From a virus (taxonomy: Duplodnaviria; Caudoviricetes): a stretch of DNA of 49,205 nucleotides. The DNA lies in the IMG/VR virus record IMGVR_UViG_3300033067_001503, positions 1-49,205 of that record; one strand, 5' to 3'. Of this stretch, positions 5,921 to 33,534 are shown in pieces. The translations under genes were made by a program, and so were the position numbers. The stretch's first letter is position 1; each line of letters begins with the position of its first letter. The notes beneath the pieces are model-generated. The model had not been told where the DNA came from, did not search any database, and saw nothing but the letters and a program-made list of their open reading frames with translations.

Positions 5921-5990
5921 TAGACGAGATTCACGCTTTGTGCTACCGGCAGACCATGAACCGCGTCCGCAACATAGACCGACCGCGACC
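5921..5990 (+). promoter_or_regulatory. tRNA array promoter and leader
   Basis: TAGACG-N17-TACCGG, then ATGAACCGC...GACCGACCGC; paralogous to 29490-29560. Confidence 0.6.
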
Positions 5991-6000
5991 CACCCCCGAT

Positions 6001-6076
6001 CAGGGCGTGGCGCAGTTGGTAGCGTGCCGCACTTGGAATGCGGAAGTCGTCGGTTCGAGCCCGACCGCCCTGACCA
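6001..6076 (+). tRNA. tRNA-Pro(TGG)
   Basis: Full cloverleaf CAGGGCG/CGCCCTG, CCGCA-CTTGGAA-TGCGG, TTCGAGC loop, encoded CCA. Confidence 0.95.
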
Positions 6077-6129
6077 CTCTCCAATTACGATATCGACTCA
6101 GTCGATCATCCTGACGCCCTTTCCAGTTC

Positions 6130-6215
6130 GGAAGGTGGCGCTGAATGGCCGGCAACTGGTCCCGAAAACCAGGCCAACCGAAAGGTTGAGGGTTCGATTC
6201 CTTCACCTTCCGCCA
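6130..6215 (+). tRNA. tRNA-Ser(CGA)
   Basis: GGAAGGT/ACCTTCC, CTGGT-CCCGAAA-ACCAG, long variable arm, G73, CCA. Confidence 0.88.
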
Positions 6216-6223
6216 ACATCTTA

Positions 6224-6309
6224 GGTATCGTGGCAGAGCAGTAATGCAGCGGTTTGCTAAACCGTACAACCGCAAGGTTGCGGAGGTGCAATTCCTCCCG
6301 GTACCGCCA
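6224..6309 (+). tRNA. tRNA-Ser(GCT)
   Basis: GGTATCG/CGGTACC, GCGGT-TTGCTAA-ACCGT, long variable arm, G73, CCA. Confidence 0.9.
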
Positions 6310-6310
6310 T

Positions 6311-6400
6311 GGGCTTCTTTCCCGGCGCGCGGCTGTAACCCGCGTGACTTCGAAATAGTCGGGGCAGTGTCGAGAGGTGCAAGTCCTCGGGGGCCCACCA
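6311..6400 (+). tRNA. atypical tRNA-Tyr(GTA)-like RNA lacking a D-arm
   Basis: Acceptor GGGCTTC/GGGGCCC-A-CCA, anticodon arm GCGCGG-CTGTAAC-CCGCGT, T-like arm GAGG-TGCAAGT-CCTC; only TTTCCCGGC where the D-arm should be. Confidence 0.7.
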
Positions 6401-6401
6401 C

Positions 6402-6478
6402 GCCCGTGTAGTCCAACTGGCAGAGACGGCACGCTTAGAACGTGCGCGATGGGAGTTCGAATCTCTCCACGGGTACCA
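6402..6478 (+). tRNA. tRNA-Leu(TAG), short variable loop
   Basis: GCCCGTG/CACGGGT, GCACG-CTTAGAA-CGTGC, A73, CCA. Confidence 0.9.
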
Positions 6479-6554
6479 GCCGCAGTAGCCCAACGGCAGA
6501 GGCACCGCCCTCAAAGCGCGGTCAGTGTTGGTTCAAGTCCAGCCTGCGGCACCA
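6479..6554 (+). tRNA. tRNA-Leu(CAA), short variable loop, C31-C39 mismatch
   Basis: GCCGCAG/CTGCGGC, CCGCC-CTCAAAG-CGCGG, TTCAAGT loop, A73, CCA. Confidence 0.82.
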
Positions 6555-6555
6555 T

Positions 6556-6629
6556 TCCCGCTTCGTCTAAAGGTAGGACTGCGCACTTTGAATGCGCCTA
6601 TCGTGGTTCGAATCCATGAGCGGGAGCCA
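6556..6629 (+). tRNA. tRNA-Gln(TTG)
   Basis: TCCCGCT/AGCGGGA (U1-A72), GCGCA-CTTTGAA-TGCGC, G73, CCA. Confidence 0.93.
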
Positions 6630-7204: not shown

Positions 7205-7267
7205 GCGGTACCCTTTCCACGGTTGATTTTTAATAGACCAAGCTGCTGATTGGAGTCATTATTAGCT

Positions 7268-7840
7268 ATGCAGTTGTGTTCCGTTGATGGATGCGCCGCG
7301 CCCGTGGACAGAAAGGGATTTTGCACACGCCACTACATGCGCAATCTGCGACACGGCGACCCTACAAAAGGACGCCGCAGGGCGAATGAGATAACCGAAT
7401 TTGTTATGGGAACGGCTCTCGTCTTTGAGGGCGACGAATGCCTTGATTGGCCGTTCTTCGTTACGAGAGTGGGCTACGCTCAGGCGCGGTTGGGGGGCCG
7501 GTATAGGCTAGTCCATCGATTTGTGTGCGAGAAGACAAAGGGGCACGCGCCTCGCCCAGGTCTTCATGCCGCCCACGTCTGCGGCAATCGCAAATGCGTT
7601 AATCCGCGCCACTTGTCGTGGAAGACGCCTATAGAAAATGAGGCGGACAAAGTCCGGCACGGAACATTGTTGGCTGGACAGCGTCACCCTAACGCAAAAC
7701 TGACCGACGATGAGGTGACGGCTATCCGAGTTCTCAGGGGGCGCATCCCCACGTCCGCAATCTGCGAGATTTTCAACGTTCAGAAGGGCACCATCTCGGC
7801 TATCCAGCTTGGCCGGACGCACAAAGAACGTAAGTCATGA
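7268..7840 (+). CDS. HNH homing endonuclease inserted antisense in the lysis cassette
   Basis: CSVDGC...C.RHY zinc motif, ECLDWP, VHR, HAAHVCGNRKCVNPRHL, NAKLTDDEV HTH. Confidence 0.9.
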   Translation: MQLCSVDGCAAPVDRKGFCTRHYMRNLRHGDPTKGRRRANEITEFVMGTALVFEGDECLDWPFFVTRVGYAQARLGGRYRLVHRFVCEKTKGHAPRPGLHAAHVCGNRKCVNPRHLSWKTPIENEADKVRHGTLLAGQRHPNAKLTDDEVTAIRVLRGRIPTSAICEIFNVQKGTISAIQLGRTHKERKS

Positions 7841-29489: not shown

Positions 29490-29560
29490 TTGACGAGAAT
29501 CCCACTGCGCTGATATAGCCGCGCGCATTATGAACCGCTCCACGCATCCAGATCGACCGC
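29490..29560 (+). promoter_or_regulatory. promoter and leader of the second tRNA locus
   Basis: TTGACGAGA...GATATAGC, then ATGAACCGC...GATCGACCGC; resembles 5921-5990. Confidence 0.6.
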
Positions 29561-29821
29561 CATCAGGCCGAAGAATACGTCCGGTACGAGGACGGCTACA
29601 CCGTCCACACGAACACGGTCGAAGGCTATTTCAGCATCTTCAAGCGCGGCATGAAGGGCGTTTACCAGCATTGCGCGGAGCACCACCTGCACCGCTATCT
29701 GGCAGAGTTCGACTTCCGCTATTCGAACCGCGCCGCGCTTGGCATTGACGACGCCGTTCGTTCGGTCGTCGCGCTGATGGGCTTCAAGGGACGCCGCCTG
29801 ACTTATCGCAAACCTGCTTGA
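29561..29821 (+). pseudogene. IS1595-family transposase C-terminal fragment
   Basis: HQAEEYVR...VHTNTVEGYFSIFKRGMKGVYQHCAEHHLHRYLAEFDFRYSNR...GRRLTY; no start codon. Confidence 0.92.
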
Positions 29822-29934
29822 CGCTAAGAAGCAACATTATCGAAAGCCGGTTCAACTGAAGCTTCCCCTATGGCGATACGAGAAGAAGCGGCGTGGCCGG
29901 TCTTGACGACTGAATATGAAGCTTGCACGGTCTA

Positions 29935-29966
29935 AAACCGGCCGCGCGCCACCGCGCGGCCGGTTT
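29935..29966. terminator. perfect 14-bp hairpin
   Basis: AAACCGGCCGCGCG-CCAC-CGCGCGGCCGGTTT. Confidence 0.65.
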
Positions 29967-29977
29967 GGAGCAAGCCA

Positions 29978-30329
29978 ATGGCCCACGAATTCCGGTCCGA
30001 GATACGCGATAGCATTATCCGTCGCCTCTTATTGAAGGTCAGGGAACAGTCCTATGGCGCGTATCTCCGGAAAATACGTCTGACCAAAGTCCGTGCCTTC
30101 GACGGCGAAGCCGTAGATTTCGACTCGCCAAGTAGTCGAGGATATCGCTAGGAGCAATCGCGACCCTCACTTATTGTTTAATCAGGTTGGGCAGTCGCTG
30201 GGGTTTATTCCCGCCAACATTGTTTCATCGGCCTTTGTGGCACTTTGGATCGAGGGCAATCCAACTGAGGCAGATCGGATTGCAGACTTTATCAAAGCCA
30301 ATGCTGCCGCTGCACGAGCAGAGGATTGA
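29978..30329 (+). pseudogene. internally deleted ABC/AAA-type ATPase (N- and C-terminal stubs)
   Basis: MAHEFRSEIRDS...YGAYLRKIRLTKVRAFDGEAVDFD breaks just before the expected Walker A; another frame continues RQVVEDIARSNRDPHLLFNQVGQSLGF...AED*. Confidence 0.6.
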
Positions 30330-30331
30330 AC

Positions 30332-30526
30332 ATGCCCAAGAACCCGAAAACCCAGCGCGAGAAGTTCGAGGACGCCGCGCGTGAGCTCGAGACGGACCAG
30401 TCCGAAGCGGCGTTCGACAAGATCGTGAAGCGCATCGCCGAAGCGAAGCACGCGCCCTATGACGAGATGGTCATACGCGCTGACAAGGAAGCGCAGGCGA
30501 AGGCTGCTAAAAAGGCCAAGGGCTAG
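30332..30526 (+). CDS. small hypothetical protein
   Basis: QREKFEDAARELETDQSEAAFDKIVKRIA, a type I recall next to IS1595 transposases; GAGGA RBS. Confidence 0.65.
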   Translation: MPKNPKTQREKFEDAARELETDQSEAAFDKIVKRIAEAKHAPYDEMVIRADKEAQAKAAKKAKG

Positions 30527-30530
30527 CAGG

Positions 30531-30797
30531 CTACTCTTTTGTCTTGCCGGCATTGTAAGGATCGCTGAACTCCCAGCCCGGCGGAGCGAGAGTTCCCATG
30601 TCCTGCATCAGCCCGTGAAAAGTACGCTCATCCATAGCGCCCCCGGATTCCGTCGACACGGTAAAGGGTGGGCCACCCCACGGCCACCGCCACCACTCCG
30701 CAGTATTCAGCTTGGTCAACCCTTCCACAGGGTAACAGCCGTATGACCTAAGGCGTTTTTCCCACTCTTGCCGCTGCAAGAGGCGAACGGCGATCAT
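30531..30797 (-). CDS. HicA-like small protein (putative toxin)
   Basis: EWEKRLRSYGC...WWRWP..PFTV...MDERTFHGLMQD resembles the dsRBD-like HicA layout; paired with a HicB-like gene. Confidence 0.45.
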   Translation of the reverse strand: MIAVRLLQRQEWEKRLRSYGCYPVEGLTKLNTAEWWRWPWGGPPFTVSTESGGAMDERTFHGLMQDMGTLAPPGWEFSDPYNAGKTKE

Positions 30798-30801
30798 CCG
30801 A

Positions 30802-31086
30802 TTAGGCGGCTATCTGGCGAACCGTATAGTCTGTCTGCGTAGGGGTGGCAGGCTGTTCCGGCAATGGAAGTTGTTCGCCTGCCATTCGCACGCGGACAAC
30901 GCTGCCAAACATTTCCCCGATGATAGTTTCGAGCGCGGGGATGATGTCGGCGGTTACAAGTGCTGGATTGCTATGGGAAAGCCGAAAACCTGGCACATCG
31001 GGGCTTGAAACCCGGAGCCCACCATCTGAACGTTTCTCAAAAACCACTAACACACGATCGAATGTTGAATGTTCGACGTGATGCAT
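30802..31086 (-). CDS. HicB-like antitoxin
   Basis: VVFEKRSDGGLRVSSPDVPGF is the HicB N-terminal motif. Confidence 0.6.
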   Translation of the reverse strand: MHHVEHSTFDRVLVVFEKRSDGGLRVSSPDVPGFRLSHSNPALVTADIIPALETIIGEMFGSVVRVRMAGEQLPLPEQPATPTQTDYTVRQIAA

Positions 31087-31221
31087 AGAGAAGCCCCCGC
31101 TCGACAAGCAAGGTAAAGTGATTTGCCTCTCCAAGCAACGAACGTGTTTACCTCTCGTTCCAAGATAGTCAACGGAATGCCCGACTACACCGCCGAAGGC
31201 TGCCGGCCCGGCAAGCGCGCG

Positions 31222-31506
31222 TCAGTACTCGACAATTTTCCCGTCAACTTTAAGGGTGGCGGGGCCGTTCGTTATGGTGTGAATCCGGCCGTCTCCACAT
31301 CTGACATTGATGTCGTGGCCTAGTTGAGACGTGATTTCGAGATCGCCACAACCGGTGATTTTGGCGATTGCCAATGCGTGGACTGCAACAGTGAACGCGT
31401 CGTCATCTGACAGCTCAACATAGTCGTCTCGCTGCGGTCGACACATCGCTACGACGATGGCGATCAAGAATACGACGCCGATAAAATGCCGACCCTTCAC
31501 CGTCAC
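31222..31506 (-). CDS. hypothetical membrane-anchored protein
   Basis: N-terminal TM helix, GAGAGG RBS. Confidence 0.55.
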   Translation of the reverse strand: MTVKGRHFIGVVFLIAIVVAMCRPQRDDYVELSDDDAFTVAVHALAIAKITGCGDLEITSQLGHDINVRCGDGRIHTITNGPATLKVDGKIVEY

Positions 31507-31575
31507 CCCTCTCTCAGCCGGTCATATCAGCTCGTCCTTGTTTAGCCTAGCGGGTTTGTCAAAGATATAATCGCC

Positions 31576-31615
31576 ACTCCGAAGGTTGCGAGTTCAAGTC
31601 CCGCCGCAGCGGCCA
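31576..31615 (+). pseudogene. 3' half of a tRNA (probably Asp or Glu) cut by the IS end
   Basis: AC-TCCGA-AGGTT-GCGAG-TTCAAGT-CCCGC-CGCAGCG-G-CCA starts exactly at the IS IR. Confidence 0.72.
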
Positions 31616-31617
31616 TT

Positions 31618-31691
31618 TCCCGCTTCGTCTAACGGTAGGACATCTGGTTTTGGTCCAGAATATCGGGGTTCGAATCCCTGAGCGGTAGCCA
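31618..31691 (+). tRNA. tRNA-Gln(TTG), second copy
   Basis: TCCCGCT/AGCGGTA (one mismatch), TCTGG-TTTTGGT-CCAGA, TTCGAAT, G73, CCA. Confidence 0.88.
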
Positions 31692-31693
31692 CC

Positions 31694-32212
31694 TCAATCT
31701 TTGAACGGATCGAACTCGGGACACTCGCAACTGTCCGGCTCTAACGTTTCGTGTCGCTCAAGATATGTTGCCGCCTGCCGCAGGACGCTCGGTCTATCCT
31801 TTGAGTATCCGAGCATGAGATTGCAGCCGCCGCAAAGCAAACCGCGCACGCTGCCTGTCGAATGATTGTGGTCTACCGATAAGGCGCGACGCTTATTGTC
31901 GCCGCCGCACACGCCACAAAGGCCGCCCTGCCGCGACCACATCGCCGCATAATCTGCCGGACTGATTCCGTAGGCGCGAAGCTTGCGCCGCATATCCTTC
32001 AATTGCTTGACGCTCTTGTCTGGGAATACACCGGCTGCGATCTTGGCCGCGCACGCCGGTTCATGACGGCCAAGATTCGGTGCGTTCATCTCGACACCGC
32101 AATGGCGGCATTCCTTCAAGATGAGGAAGCCGGCCGGCTTCTTGCCCTTCATCGCCTTGGAAATGCGCTCTTTGGTTTCAGTTGTGTGACGCACGGAGAT
32201 TAGTCTTTCCAA
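31694..32212 (-). CDS. NUMOD3 + endonuclease VII-family homing-type nuclease
   Basis: HTTETKERISKAMKG (NUMOD3); YGIS..DY..M...Q.G.C.VC...LSVDHNH.TG.VRGLLC..CN. Confidence 0.88.
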   Translation of the reverse strand: MERLISVRHTTETKERISKAMKGKKPAGFLILKECRHCGVEMNAPNLGRHEPACAAKIAAGVFPDKSVKQLKDMRRKLRAYGISPADYAAMWSRQGGLCGVCGGDNKRRALSVDHNHSTGSVRGLLCGGCNLMLGYSKDRPSVLRQAATYLERHETLEPDSCECPEFDPFKD

Positions 32213-33534
32213 GGGTCTTCTTCACGCGCCCCGGCCATCGCCACTGCGAACGGGCGCAGCGTATGCAGCACCTTCGTTGACGCGGAATGATGGGCGAGCA
32301 CTTCCGGCAGGCGACGATAGGCCATCGGGCTTTCGTCCAGATCGGCACCGATGAGCACAACGCCACGCTCCTGAAGCCAGCGCTCCATCTCGTCTCGCTG
32401 GAAACGCCTCTTTGCTTCCTTGCGACCGAACAGACGTCCAGCGCCGTGCACCGTCGAATAGAGCGACGAACGTGCCTCGTTGCTGTCCACGCCTTCGATG
32501 ATGACCGCGTCGTCGCCCATGGAGCCGCCGACAAAGCCGCGCTGGCCGGGAAAGGCCGGTGTCGCGCCCTTACGAACCACCCATAGGTCACGGTTGCCGT
32601 GGCGCTCTCGCCAAGCGTAGTTGTGGTGGTTGTGCACGCGGTCGGTCTCCTCGCCGCCGATGATCTTGCGGACACGCTCACAGACCCATTCCCGGCCCGC
32701 GTAGGCGTAGCGCCCGGCAAGCTCCATTGCCGCGATGTAGCGGCGACCGATTTCGCTGTCCTCGTTGATGACCGCCGGCGGAACGTTCATGCCATCCTTG
32801 CCGCCGGCTGCCTTCAGGTACTTGGTCGCGCTGGAATGGCCGAGCCCGCGCGAGCCGAAATGCACGCCGATCCAGACCATGCCAGCTTCATCGCGCATCA
32901 AATCAACATAGTGGTTCCCTGACCCGACGGTGCCGAGCTGCGCAGCCGCCTTGCTGCGATAGTCCTCTCGATCGGACTCGCGCCAAGCATCGGCATCGTC
33001 AAGCAGTTCGTGCTCGACACGCTCGTCATTGGTGCGACCGACGCCAAACGAGATGATGCGCGCCACGTCCTTGATGATGGTTGGAACGCTGTCCTGGATT
33101 GCGGAGAAAGGCGTATCGAGGCGGATAGCCATGTTCCCGCATCCGATGTCGAACCCGACACCGGAGATGCTGATCTGGCCATCATAGGCGATGACGCCGC
33201 CGACCGGCTGCGCATAGCCGAGATGGCCGTCTGCGCAGATGGTTCCAGCCACTACGTTGCCGACCGCCATGCAGTTGCGCATCTGCGCCAGCGTGCCTTC
33301 GTCGTGCTCGCCGAAAACCTTCAAGGGCGAATTCTGATATTCAGCGGCCTGCGGCGGAAGTTCAACCTGCGCAGCTTCCTTCAAGACCTGCTCCTGACGT
33401 GCCGCGTCCCGGAACGTGCACCATGCCGGCATCCCGCGTCCTTCGCCGACACGGCTTTCAGGATCAATGCCGGCGGCAACGCACAGTTCGCGCGCCCGGA
33501 CTTCCATGCGATCTGGCTGACGCATTCGTCTCAC
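32200..33534 (-). CDS. rtcB: RtcB RNA ligase with N-terminal extension
   Basis: DGHLGY..PVGG, GFDIGCG, GTVGSGNHY, HFGSRGLG, HNHHNYAW, RKGATPA, GSMG, HGAGR, DESPMAYR. Confidence 0.95.
   Translation of the reverse strand: MRRMRQPDRMEVRARELCVAAGIDPESRVGEGRGMPAWCTFRDAARQEQVLKEAAQVELPPQAAEYQNSPLKVFGEHDEGTLAQMRNCMAVGNVVAGTICADGHLGYAQPVGGVIAYDGQISISGVGFDIGCGNMAIRLDTPFSAIQDSVPTIIKDVARIISFGVGRTNDERVEHELLDDADAWRESDREDYRSKAAAQLGTVGSGNHYVDLMRDEAGMVWIGVHFGSRGLGHSSATKYLKAAGGKDGMNVPPAVINEDSEIGRRYIAAMELAGRYAYAGREWVCERVRKIIGGEETDRVHNHHNYAWRERHGNRDLWVVRKGATPAFPGQRGFVGGSMGDDAVIIEGVDSNEARSSLYSTVHGAGRLFGRKEAKRRFQRDEMERWLQERGVVLIGADLDESPMAYRRLPEVLAHHSASTKVLHTLRPFAVAMAGAREEDPWKD

Follow-up and report, generated by a model that had tools for sequence, protein, structure and literature searches.

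The DNA analysed here, referred to as the window, is the whole virus record IMGVR_UViG_3300033067_001503 (49.2 kb) and comes from a P22-like temperate phage. A Pfam scan of 57 ORFs identified a phage gene set with integrase, portal, coat, terminase and RtcB. The host is probably an alphaproteobacterium, because relatives of the IS1595 element described below are found in Mesorhizobium, Roseomonas and Methylobacterium. The window also encodes two HNH endonucleases and an endonuclease VII (1307-1867, 7250-7840 and 31694-32212); the latter two genes (7250-7840, 31694-32212) are near tRNA loci. At the gathering score, Rfam returned six tRNA matches in the window only, with no T-box or other cis-regulator.

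The first tRNA array (array 1, site 1) starts with a predicted sigma-70-type promoter on the plus strand at 5921..5949 (-35 TAGACG, 17 nt, extended -10). A strict E. coli consensus scan called no promoter in this interval. The ATG of site 1 lies 6 nt past the -10 element, so its start is likely leaderless. The frame that it opens is not a short stand-alone peptide; it runs for 52 codons on the plus strand (5956..6114), encoding MNRVRNIDRPRPTPD, passing through tRNA-Pro and ending with the tail LQLRYRLSRSS at a stop codon (6112-6114). We regard this frame as a candidate sensor uORF. Its putative Pro test codons, CGA CCG CGA CCC ACC CCC (R-P-R-P-T-P), are located at 5980..5997, shortly upstream of the phage-type tRNA-Pro(UGG) at 6001..6076, which has a CAGGG acceptor strand and an A at position 37. 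The 3' end of the leader is predicted to pair with the 5' strand of tRNA-Pro in an anti-acceptor hairpin (hairpin 1, 5985..6013, plus strand; -13.3 kcal/mol as a local fold).

Downstream of tRNA-Pro, the uORF tail (6079..6114) contains Leu, Gln, Tyr and Ser codons, three of them placed after CGA. It is followed by a second predicted anti-acceptor hairpin (hairpin 2, 6115..6140, plus strand; -14.8 kcal/mol), in which the spacer pairs with the 5' strand of tRNA-Ser(CGA). This second tRNA (6130..6215, plus strand) was called by ARAGORN at a relaxed threshold and missed by Rfam and by ARAGORN at default settings, and it begins 15 nt after the uORF stop. The rest of the array spans 6224..6629 on the plus strand and consists of Ser(GCU) at 6224-6309, a Tyr-like (GUA) element without a D arm at 6311-6400, recognized from its sequence, Leu(UAG) at 6402-6478, Leu(CAA) at 6479-6554 and Gln(UUG) at 6556-6629. 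Thus, a tail of Leu, Gln, Tyr and Ser codons precedes an array of Ser, Ser, Tyr-like, Leu, Leu and Gln, and the codons match the tRNAs in roughly reverse order. We found no intrinsic terminator (stem plus U run) on the plus strand between 5700 and 6800; on their 3' sides, hairpins 1 and 2 continue into tRNA sequence.

The Tyr-like element (plus strand) has an acceptor stem, a GUA anticodon arm, a T arm, CCA and a long extra region. It is kept in a related array (L267, 1130-1219), was missed by both ARAGORN and Rfam, and has an unremarkable folding z-score (0.19). The CGA-TAT pair in the uORF tail hints that it serves as a tRNA-Tyr. ARAGORN also called a tRNA-Thr on the minus strand (6418-6512). 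This call overlaps the two Leu tRNAs of the plus strand, and we regard it as a probable artefact. The spacer at 6114-6120 is complementary to the 5' strand of tRNA-Pro as well, and this strand of hairpin 2 may therefore have two partners.

The initial annotation had joined site 1 with a second site as two tRNA-array leaders under a common promoter. Both quoted stretches exist, TAGACGAGA at 5921 with its ATG at 5956 and TTGACGAGA at 29490 with its ATG at 29530, and their likeness is above chance. When the 1627 ATG-anchored 30-mers of the window are ranked by identity to site 1, site 2 comes first (20/30; the next best has 18/30). A strict rule combining the promoter with ATGAAC..CGACC, derived from the two sites themselves, found only sites 1 and 2 in the window and nothing in 100 Markov shuffles. 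The reported identity of spacing and frame holds from the ATG onward. It does not extend upstream, where site 1 has 35 nt between the -35 element and the ATG and site 2 has 40 nt.

No tRNA directly follows site 2, which is a broken remnant and not a second working copy. Its predicted promoter (29490..29519, plus strand; -35 TTGACG, 18 nt, extended -10) is placed 10 nt before the ATG, counted from the -10 element. The leader MNRSTHPDRP (29530..29560, plus strand) is truncated and has no second R-P and no tRNA-Pro. It is fused to a transposase 3' fragment (Pfam DDE_Tnp_IS1595) which begins inside the DRP codons; in 13 of the 15 listed tblastn matches, homology starts near 29558-29561, and the junction is likely a 4-nt microhomology (29557-29560). 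The right part of this IS1595-family element (29558..31576, plus strand) consists of the transposase fragment (29558-29821), cargo ORFs and one end at about 31555-31576, which we take to be an IS1595 end. A second IS1595 end was not found in the window. The segment that follows (31577..31691, plus strand) holds a tRNA 3' half and then tRNA-Gln(UUG) (31618-31691), the next whole tRNA, 2 kb from the leader. The 3' half best matches the tRNA-Arg(CCG) of L017 (87% over 39 nt), which carries an intact leader-Pro-Arg-Gln-rtcB array. In the window, the RtcB RNA ligase gene (32200..33534, minus strand; Pfam RtcB) converges on the former array 2.

These features suggest that site 2 is likely the remnant of a Pro-Arg-Gln array, cut by an IS1595-linked deletion. 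The IS element would have entered the tRNA-Arg gene, and a later deletion would have taken tRNA-Pro and the left part of the IS element. Site 2 would thus likely be a former tRNA locus that has lost its switch. A hunt for an intact allele gave no viral match to the exact promoter pattern, and the small-terminase relatives found had an identity of only about 35%. The orphaned promoter is now directed into the IS cargo (29530-31506), with a 72-codon frame starting from the old ATG; the cargo also holds a 64-aa ORF (30332-30526) and three minus-strand ORFs without a Pfam match. In one relative of array 1 (L002, 2523-2771), an IS1595 transposase fragment is located within 1.1 kb of the array leader.

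Relatives of array 1 were collected by several scans. A motif-based search gave L002, a true relative, and L001, which was rejected as a chance match with no tRNA. A scan that set no requirement for the leader covered 119 viral tRNA-Pro loci, and 6 of its 102 distinct upstream regions were members. Conditioned scans for CC-N4-CC within 27 nt of the tRNA covered 63 viral loci and 119 of about 380 metagenome stretches. Seven loci from a pattern one base short, and loci with less than 75 nt upstream, were left out. The resulting pool comprised 219 distinct tRNA-Pro loci, 135 of them without a preceding tRNA arm. It contained 33 members, for which we required that the start codon share the frame of P-[R/H/S]-P; two of the 33 have GTG starts and were added manually. 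Phage origin was checked for some of the metagenome contigs. We found rtcB in the fetched flanks of 7/33 members. No phage-type tRNA-Pro was found in 301 genomes of the class Alphaproteobacteria, and no P-R-P uORF at 30 chromosomal tRNA-Pro loci among the matches listed (both counts include the unpublished genome G040, L328); a chromosomal counterpart was rejected on this basis. The cultured phage WRightOn, one of 4 records examined out of 402 cultured-phage records, has no such leader and was rejected as a member.

Comparison of these arrays confirmed the codon-level conservation for which the initial annotation had proposed a check. An in-frame ATG within 45 nt is present in 29/41 loci that have CCN-MGN-CC close to the tRNA, and the other two frames have 2 and 2 (p=1.5e-14), which indicates selection on the frame. 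The Pro codons of the leader differ in their third bases. Among the loci with an ATG and P-R-P, 28/29 have an A37 tRNA-Pro. The MNR start of the peptide is not a shared motif, since N-termini vary; the conserved core is R-P-R-P/N-P-R-P. The leader is thus a real, conserved, codon-level element.

The proposed leaderless start is plausible at site 1, with its promoter-like spacing, and does not apply to the family as a whole. Promoter-like spacing is found in 6 of the 33 members, a Shine-Dalgarno-like motif in 14 and neither in 13. The promoter-to-ATG arrangement, under a rule written after the members had been seen, occurs in 6/33 members vs 3/1626 window ATGs, two of which are sites 1 and 2. 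A shared DNA operator, or common promoter ancestry with an incidental ORF, had been offered as the alternative to a leader. The two promoters are indeed alike over the -35 region, and the broken site 2 still matches. However, the ATG is frame-specific, the stop is placed and the codons are matched, upstream DNA varies, and the 14/33 members with a Shine-Dalgarno-like motif do not share the arrangement of site 1. What is conserved is the ATG frame, synonymous variation and codon-to-tRNA matching, not a DNA site. The frame tests largely refute this alternative, and we give it almost no weight.

To describe how the uORF meets the tRNA genes, we examined read-through and stop placement, two features under no selection in the scans. 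The uORF is open through tRNA-Pro in 31/33 members (17.7 expected), and frame 0 is open in 26/27 vs 104/186 (p=1.3e-5). The two members whose uORF closes inside tRNA-Pro also have no hairpin 1. Tests on the second tRNA (tRNA 2) used 28 members, leaving out three without a tRNA 2 within 80 nt and two that stop early. In all 28, the uORF stops before tRNA 2, in 20 of these within 0-10 nt, and the other two frames enter tRNA 2 in 52/56 cases. The stop falls mostly within hairpin 2. A hairpin 2 of -6 or lower on the tRNA 2 5' strand was predicted in 23/28 members vs 20/78 controls.

Hairpin 1, formed by the last 16 nt of the leader and the tRNA-Pro 5' strand, is predicted at -11 kcal/mol or lower in 29/33 members vs 6/102 and 2/84 non-members, a difference partly favoured by selection, since most members come from the CC-N4-CC scans. 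The median predicted acceptor-stem probability is 0.00 in members vs 0.88 and 0.86 in non-members. Position 6 of tRNA-Pro pairs as C:G in 25 members and as U:A in 4, and in the remaining 4 it has no partner. No further pair type was seen, which indicates covariation. Against synonymous shuffles, the real leader ranks in the best 10% for 17/33 members only, with the window at 0.26.

The tail codons proved to follow the identity of the downstream tRNAs. The amino acid of tRNA 2 is among the last 4 codons of the uORF in 28/28 members (permutation mean 9.1, maximum 20 in 20000), and in 23/23 after similar tails were collapsed (class-level p ~1e-4 over 8 amino acids). The tRNA 2 classes are Thr (10), Gln (6), Tyr (4), Ser (3), His (2), Arg, Trp and Leu. 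Shifted frames give a match in 10/28 and 3/28 only. In 27/28 a matching tail codon is essentially unpaired, and pairing therefore does not account for the match. Over whole tails, 116/163 non-Arg codons belong to the amino-acid set of their array vs 48 expected, and the codon after CGA specifies an array amino acid in 22/26 (7.9 expected). In 7/28 members, the window included, standard wobble would not allow tRNA 2 to read any tail codon for its own amino acid; the match therefore holds at the amino-acid level. From tRNA 3 onward, 29/47 array amino acids are present in the tail (13.2 expected), and the reverse-order rule is modest, with 15 concordant vs 5 discordant. Two arrays that begin with tRNA-Gln (L175 and L188) have Gln-Gln-Gln leaders and Pro-rich tails before tRNA-Pro; they were found among 25 rows from the 219 loci, most of which were unrelated.

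These matches also bear on the possibility that the peptide itself is conserved, as a proline-rich arrest sequence or a trans-acting peptide, with the tRNA link being secondary. R-P-R-P resembles proline-rich ribosome-binding peptide motifs, and P-R-P persists outside the hairpin register too. However, N-termini and tails show free variation, members differ in the frame in which the tRNA is crossed, and the tail codons track tRNA identity. We consider this explanation very improbable.

Upstream Arg-Pro pairs use CGA in 32/33 cases. Other upstream Arg codons are mostly CGC (19/28), and CGA makes up 8% of Arg codons in 14 window genes. A pairing requirement for CGA was tried and rejected; its partners vary, and folding does not account for it. 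When CGA was replaced with CGC, the ensemble energy fell in 15/32 cases (by over 1 kcal/mol) and rose in 4. We therefore prefer a role in decoding. Reciprocal Pro codon use (CCG in UGG leaders, CCA in CGG leaders) was also tried and gave a weak trend only. The use of CGA before Pro would fit a constitutive licensing scheme, in which built-in pauses (at CGA pairs and at the stop) keep opening the hairpins for as long as the host translates, and the array follows general translation and not shortage; hairpin 2 would also be covered by a ribosome that has reached the stop. Yet a general pause needs no codons that change with tRNA identity over 8 amino acids, nor does it need Gln leaders in Gln-first arrays, and we judge such licensing improbable.

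The initial annotation had proposed a translated Arg/Pro leader that couples tRNA-array output to ribosome state. The frame and the codons in homologues support this idea well. Three features were absent from the annotation: the passage of the frame through tRNA-Pro, the anti-acceptor hairpins and the tail codons. To model the effect of a ribosome on the folds, we used a mask with the cognate codon in the A site and 8 nt covered past its first base, in keeping with the usual ribosome footprint. In these predicted folds, the mask switches the acceptor stem from off to on for tRNA-Pro in 27/33 members and for tRNA 2 in 16/28. In the window, the predicted acceptor probability of tRNA-Pro rises from 0.00 in the free RNA to 0.92-0.93 with the leader masked at Pro codons, and that of tRNA-Ser rises from 0.00 to 0.76 with the mask at the last Ser codon. 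Tested in the same way, 12/28 tRNA 2 show no switch, and 6/28 are unfolded even alone.

When the window's complete two-tRNA transcript was folded at equilibrium, masking at cognate codons brought back neither acceptor stem, with a maximum of 0.03 for Pro and values of 0.00-0.07 for Ser at codons 49-53. The switch thus appears only when each tRNA folds with its own leader, and the model depends on co-transcriptional or stepwise folding. RNA runs X9 and X18 gave low-depth contigs only, too shallow for RNA ends.

The ORF, its frame, the stop placement, the codon-to-tRNA matching, the complementarity and the covariation can be read from the sequences themselves, and the hairpin and cloverleaf folds are predictions. 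On this footing, we consider it fairly probable that the uORF running through the first tRNA acts as a stall sensor, in which a stalled ribosome would mask the blocking strand and let the tRNA fold. A ribosome stalled on cognate codons would cover the strand that pairs with the tRNA 5' end, and the cloverleaf could then form and enter processing. If ribosomes are absent or reach the stop quickly, the local hairpins would form ahead of the cloverleaves and leave tRNA-Pro and tRNA 2 misfolded. The misfolded C-rich RNA would likely be removed by Rho termination or decay, and the downstream tRNAs would be silenced too. A ribosome on the codons for tRNA 3 onward would be too distant, on the upstream side, to mask hairpin 2, and these codons would need a further polarity step. 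We give slightly less than an even chance to a broader reading, in which the ribosome would gate tRNA folding and maturation directly and the codon panel would be modular, rewritten on tRNA gain and releasing tRNAs amino acid by amino acid.

Rho could also be the main output. In such a scheme, the uORF would sense codons, Rho termination or decay would act on the whole transcript, as at tnaC, speFL or mgtL, and the hairpins would serve to keep the RNA unfolded for Rho, without tRNA folding being under control. uORF-controlled Rho attenuation is established, and Rho loading sites are described as favouring C over G and low-structure RNA (PMC12360218). The tails are C-rich and G-poor (C 0.38, G 0.17) and extend 11-47 nt before the stop, shorter than an optimal Rho site of 60-90 nt; test codons for tRNA 3 onward fit an output at the level of the whole array. 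Alone, however, Rho leaves unexplained why both hairpins, with covariation, fall on the acceptor strand, and why cognate codons are found at the ribosome's reach from each tRNA start. As the sole account we find it unlikely, with more to be said for it than for the licensing and peptide explanations. It can hold together with the stall-sensor model.

In the stall-sensor model, the trigger is likely to be a loss of usable host tRNA, because rtcB is found in 7/33 flanks, tRNA cleavage is a known defence (as described in PMC12409363) and an A37 tRNA would have no need of m1G37. Loss of m1G37 is reported to stall ribosomes at the affected codons (PMC8384417), and an A37 tRNA-Pro would bypass this dependence. 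The likely purpose would be an on-demand supply of tRNAs when those of the host are cleaved, unmodified or uncharged.

The overall design is best described as predicted ribosome-mediated attenuation with tRNA folding as its output. Leader-peptide attenuators are known for amino-acid operons and pheST (trpL, hisL, thrL, ilvL, pheM). Like trpL-type attenuators, the phage element has a short 5' uORF, recognized by frame, with control codons for amino acids served downstream, several amino acids per leader, and mutually exclusive predicted structures, that is, rival hairpins set by ribosome position. Unlike them, it has no intrinsic terminator that we could find, and its uORF, rather than ending upstream of the regulated genes, crosses one of them (31/33); the rival structure is the cloverleaf itself, and the regulated genes are tRNAs. 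It also differs from translational attenuators of the ermC/cat type, where stalling exposes the ribosome-binding site of a protein gene downstream, in that the sequestered strands are tRNA 5' ends and the downstream genes are tRNAs. Closer in one respect are tnaC, speFL, mgtL, corL and cruR, where stalling in the uORF determines how the RNA folds or whether C-rich RNA is accessible, again with no intrinsic terminator; these control protein genes, and none is described in that account as crossing or sequestering a tRNA (PMC12360218). In the mycobacterial whiB7/wblC uORF, the coding sequence likewise sets which amino-acid or tRNA shortage is sensed, but as presented there the output is antitermination into a protein gene, with no tRNA-folding step (PMC10274678).

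In the literature searched, with most subscription papers outside its scope, we found no description of a tRNA-crossing codon-sensor uORF. The TrcR paper reportedly also deals with the trn operon of Anabaena. With the same likely purpose as the phage arrays, that operon is an inducible tRNA reserve that responds to translation stress and is co-regulated with rtcB; its control is by promoter repeats and a repressor, and the main text of the report contains neither 'leader' nor 'attenuat' (PMC8421152). In the 33 upstream regions of our members, inspection by eye revealed no common repeat. Phage T5 tRNAs counter AriB of the PARIS system, which gives a counter-defence reason for on-demand phage tRNAs, and the account describes no leader regulation (PMC12409363). 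tRNA-Thr(UGU), an AriB target, is among the commonest downstream tRNAs in our set (10 arrays). In the T5-like phage DT57C, an ordinary CDS ends just 5' of tRNA-Pro according to annotation; DT57C and VEcB were rejected as members because, going by annotation only, a CDS abuts their tRNA-Pro instead.

The element bears on the question of when phages express their tRNAs and for what reason. Since the uORF tail reads as a list of monitored amino acids, the hypothesis that phage tRNAs replace depleted host tRNAs becomes directly testable, and the list points to likely targets of host defences. If the model is true, attenuation would be extended from termination and translation initiation to tRNA folding, a tRNA gene would double as coding sequence, and temperate phages would detect the destruction of host tRNAs and answer it amino acid by amino acid.

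Other ORFs were observed upstream of tRNA-Pro. In Roseobacter phage DSS3P8 (L362, 1127-1330), a borderline member, tRNA-Pro is crossed by an ATG-started frame whose leader has a single Pro codon, at -7, and a predicted hairpin of -10.9 kcal/mol. Short or terminal Pro-rich ORFs outside the member definition precede tRNA-Pro in L057/L150, L065, L159, L299, L043, L085 and L222. In L149, L161, L191 and L058, a Leu-rich ORF follows tRNA-Leu(CAG) and ends in RPRP or RPHP, with its stop within a hairpin just 5' of tRNA-Pro, possibly representing a second design.
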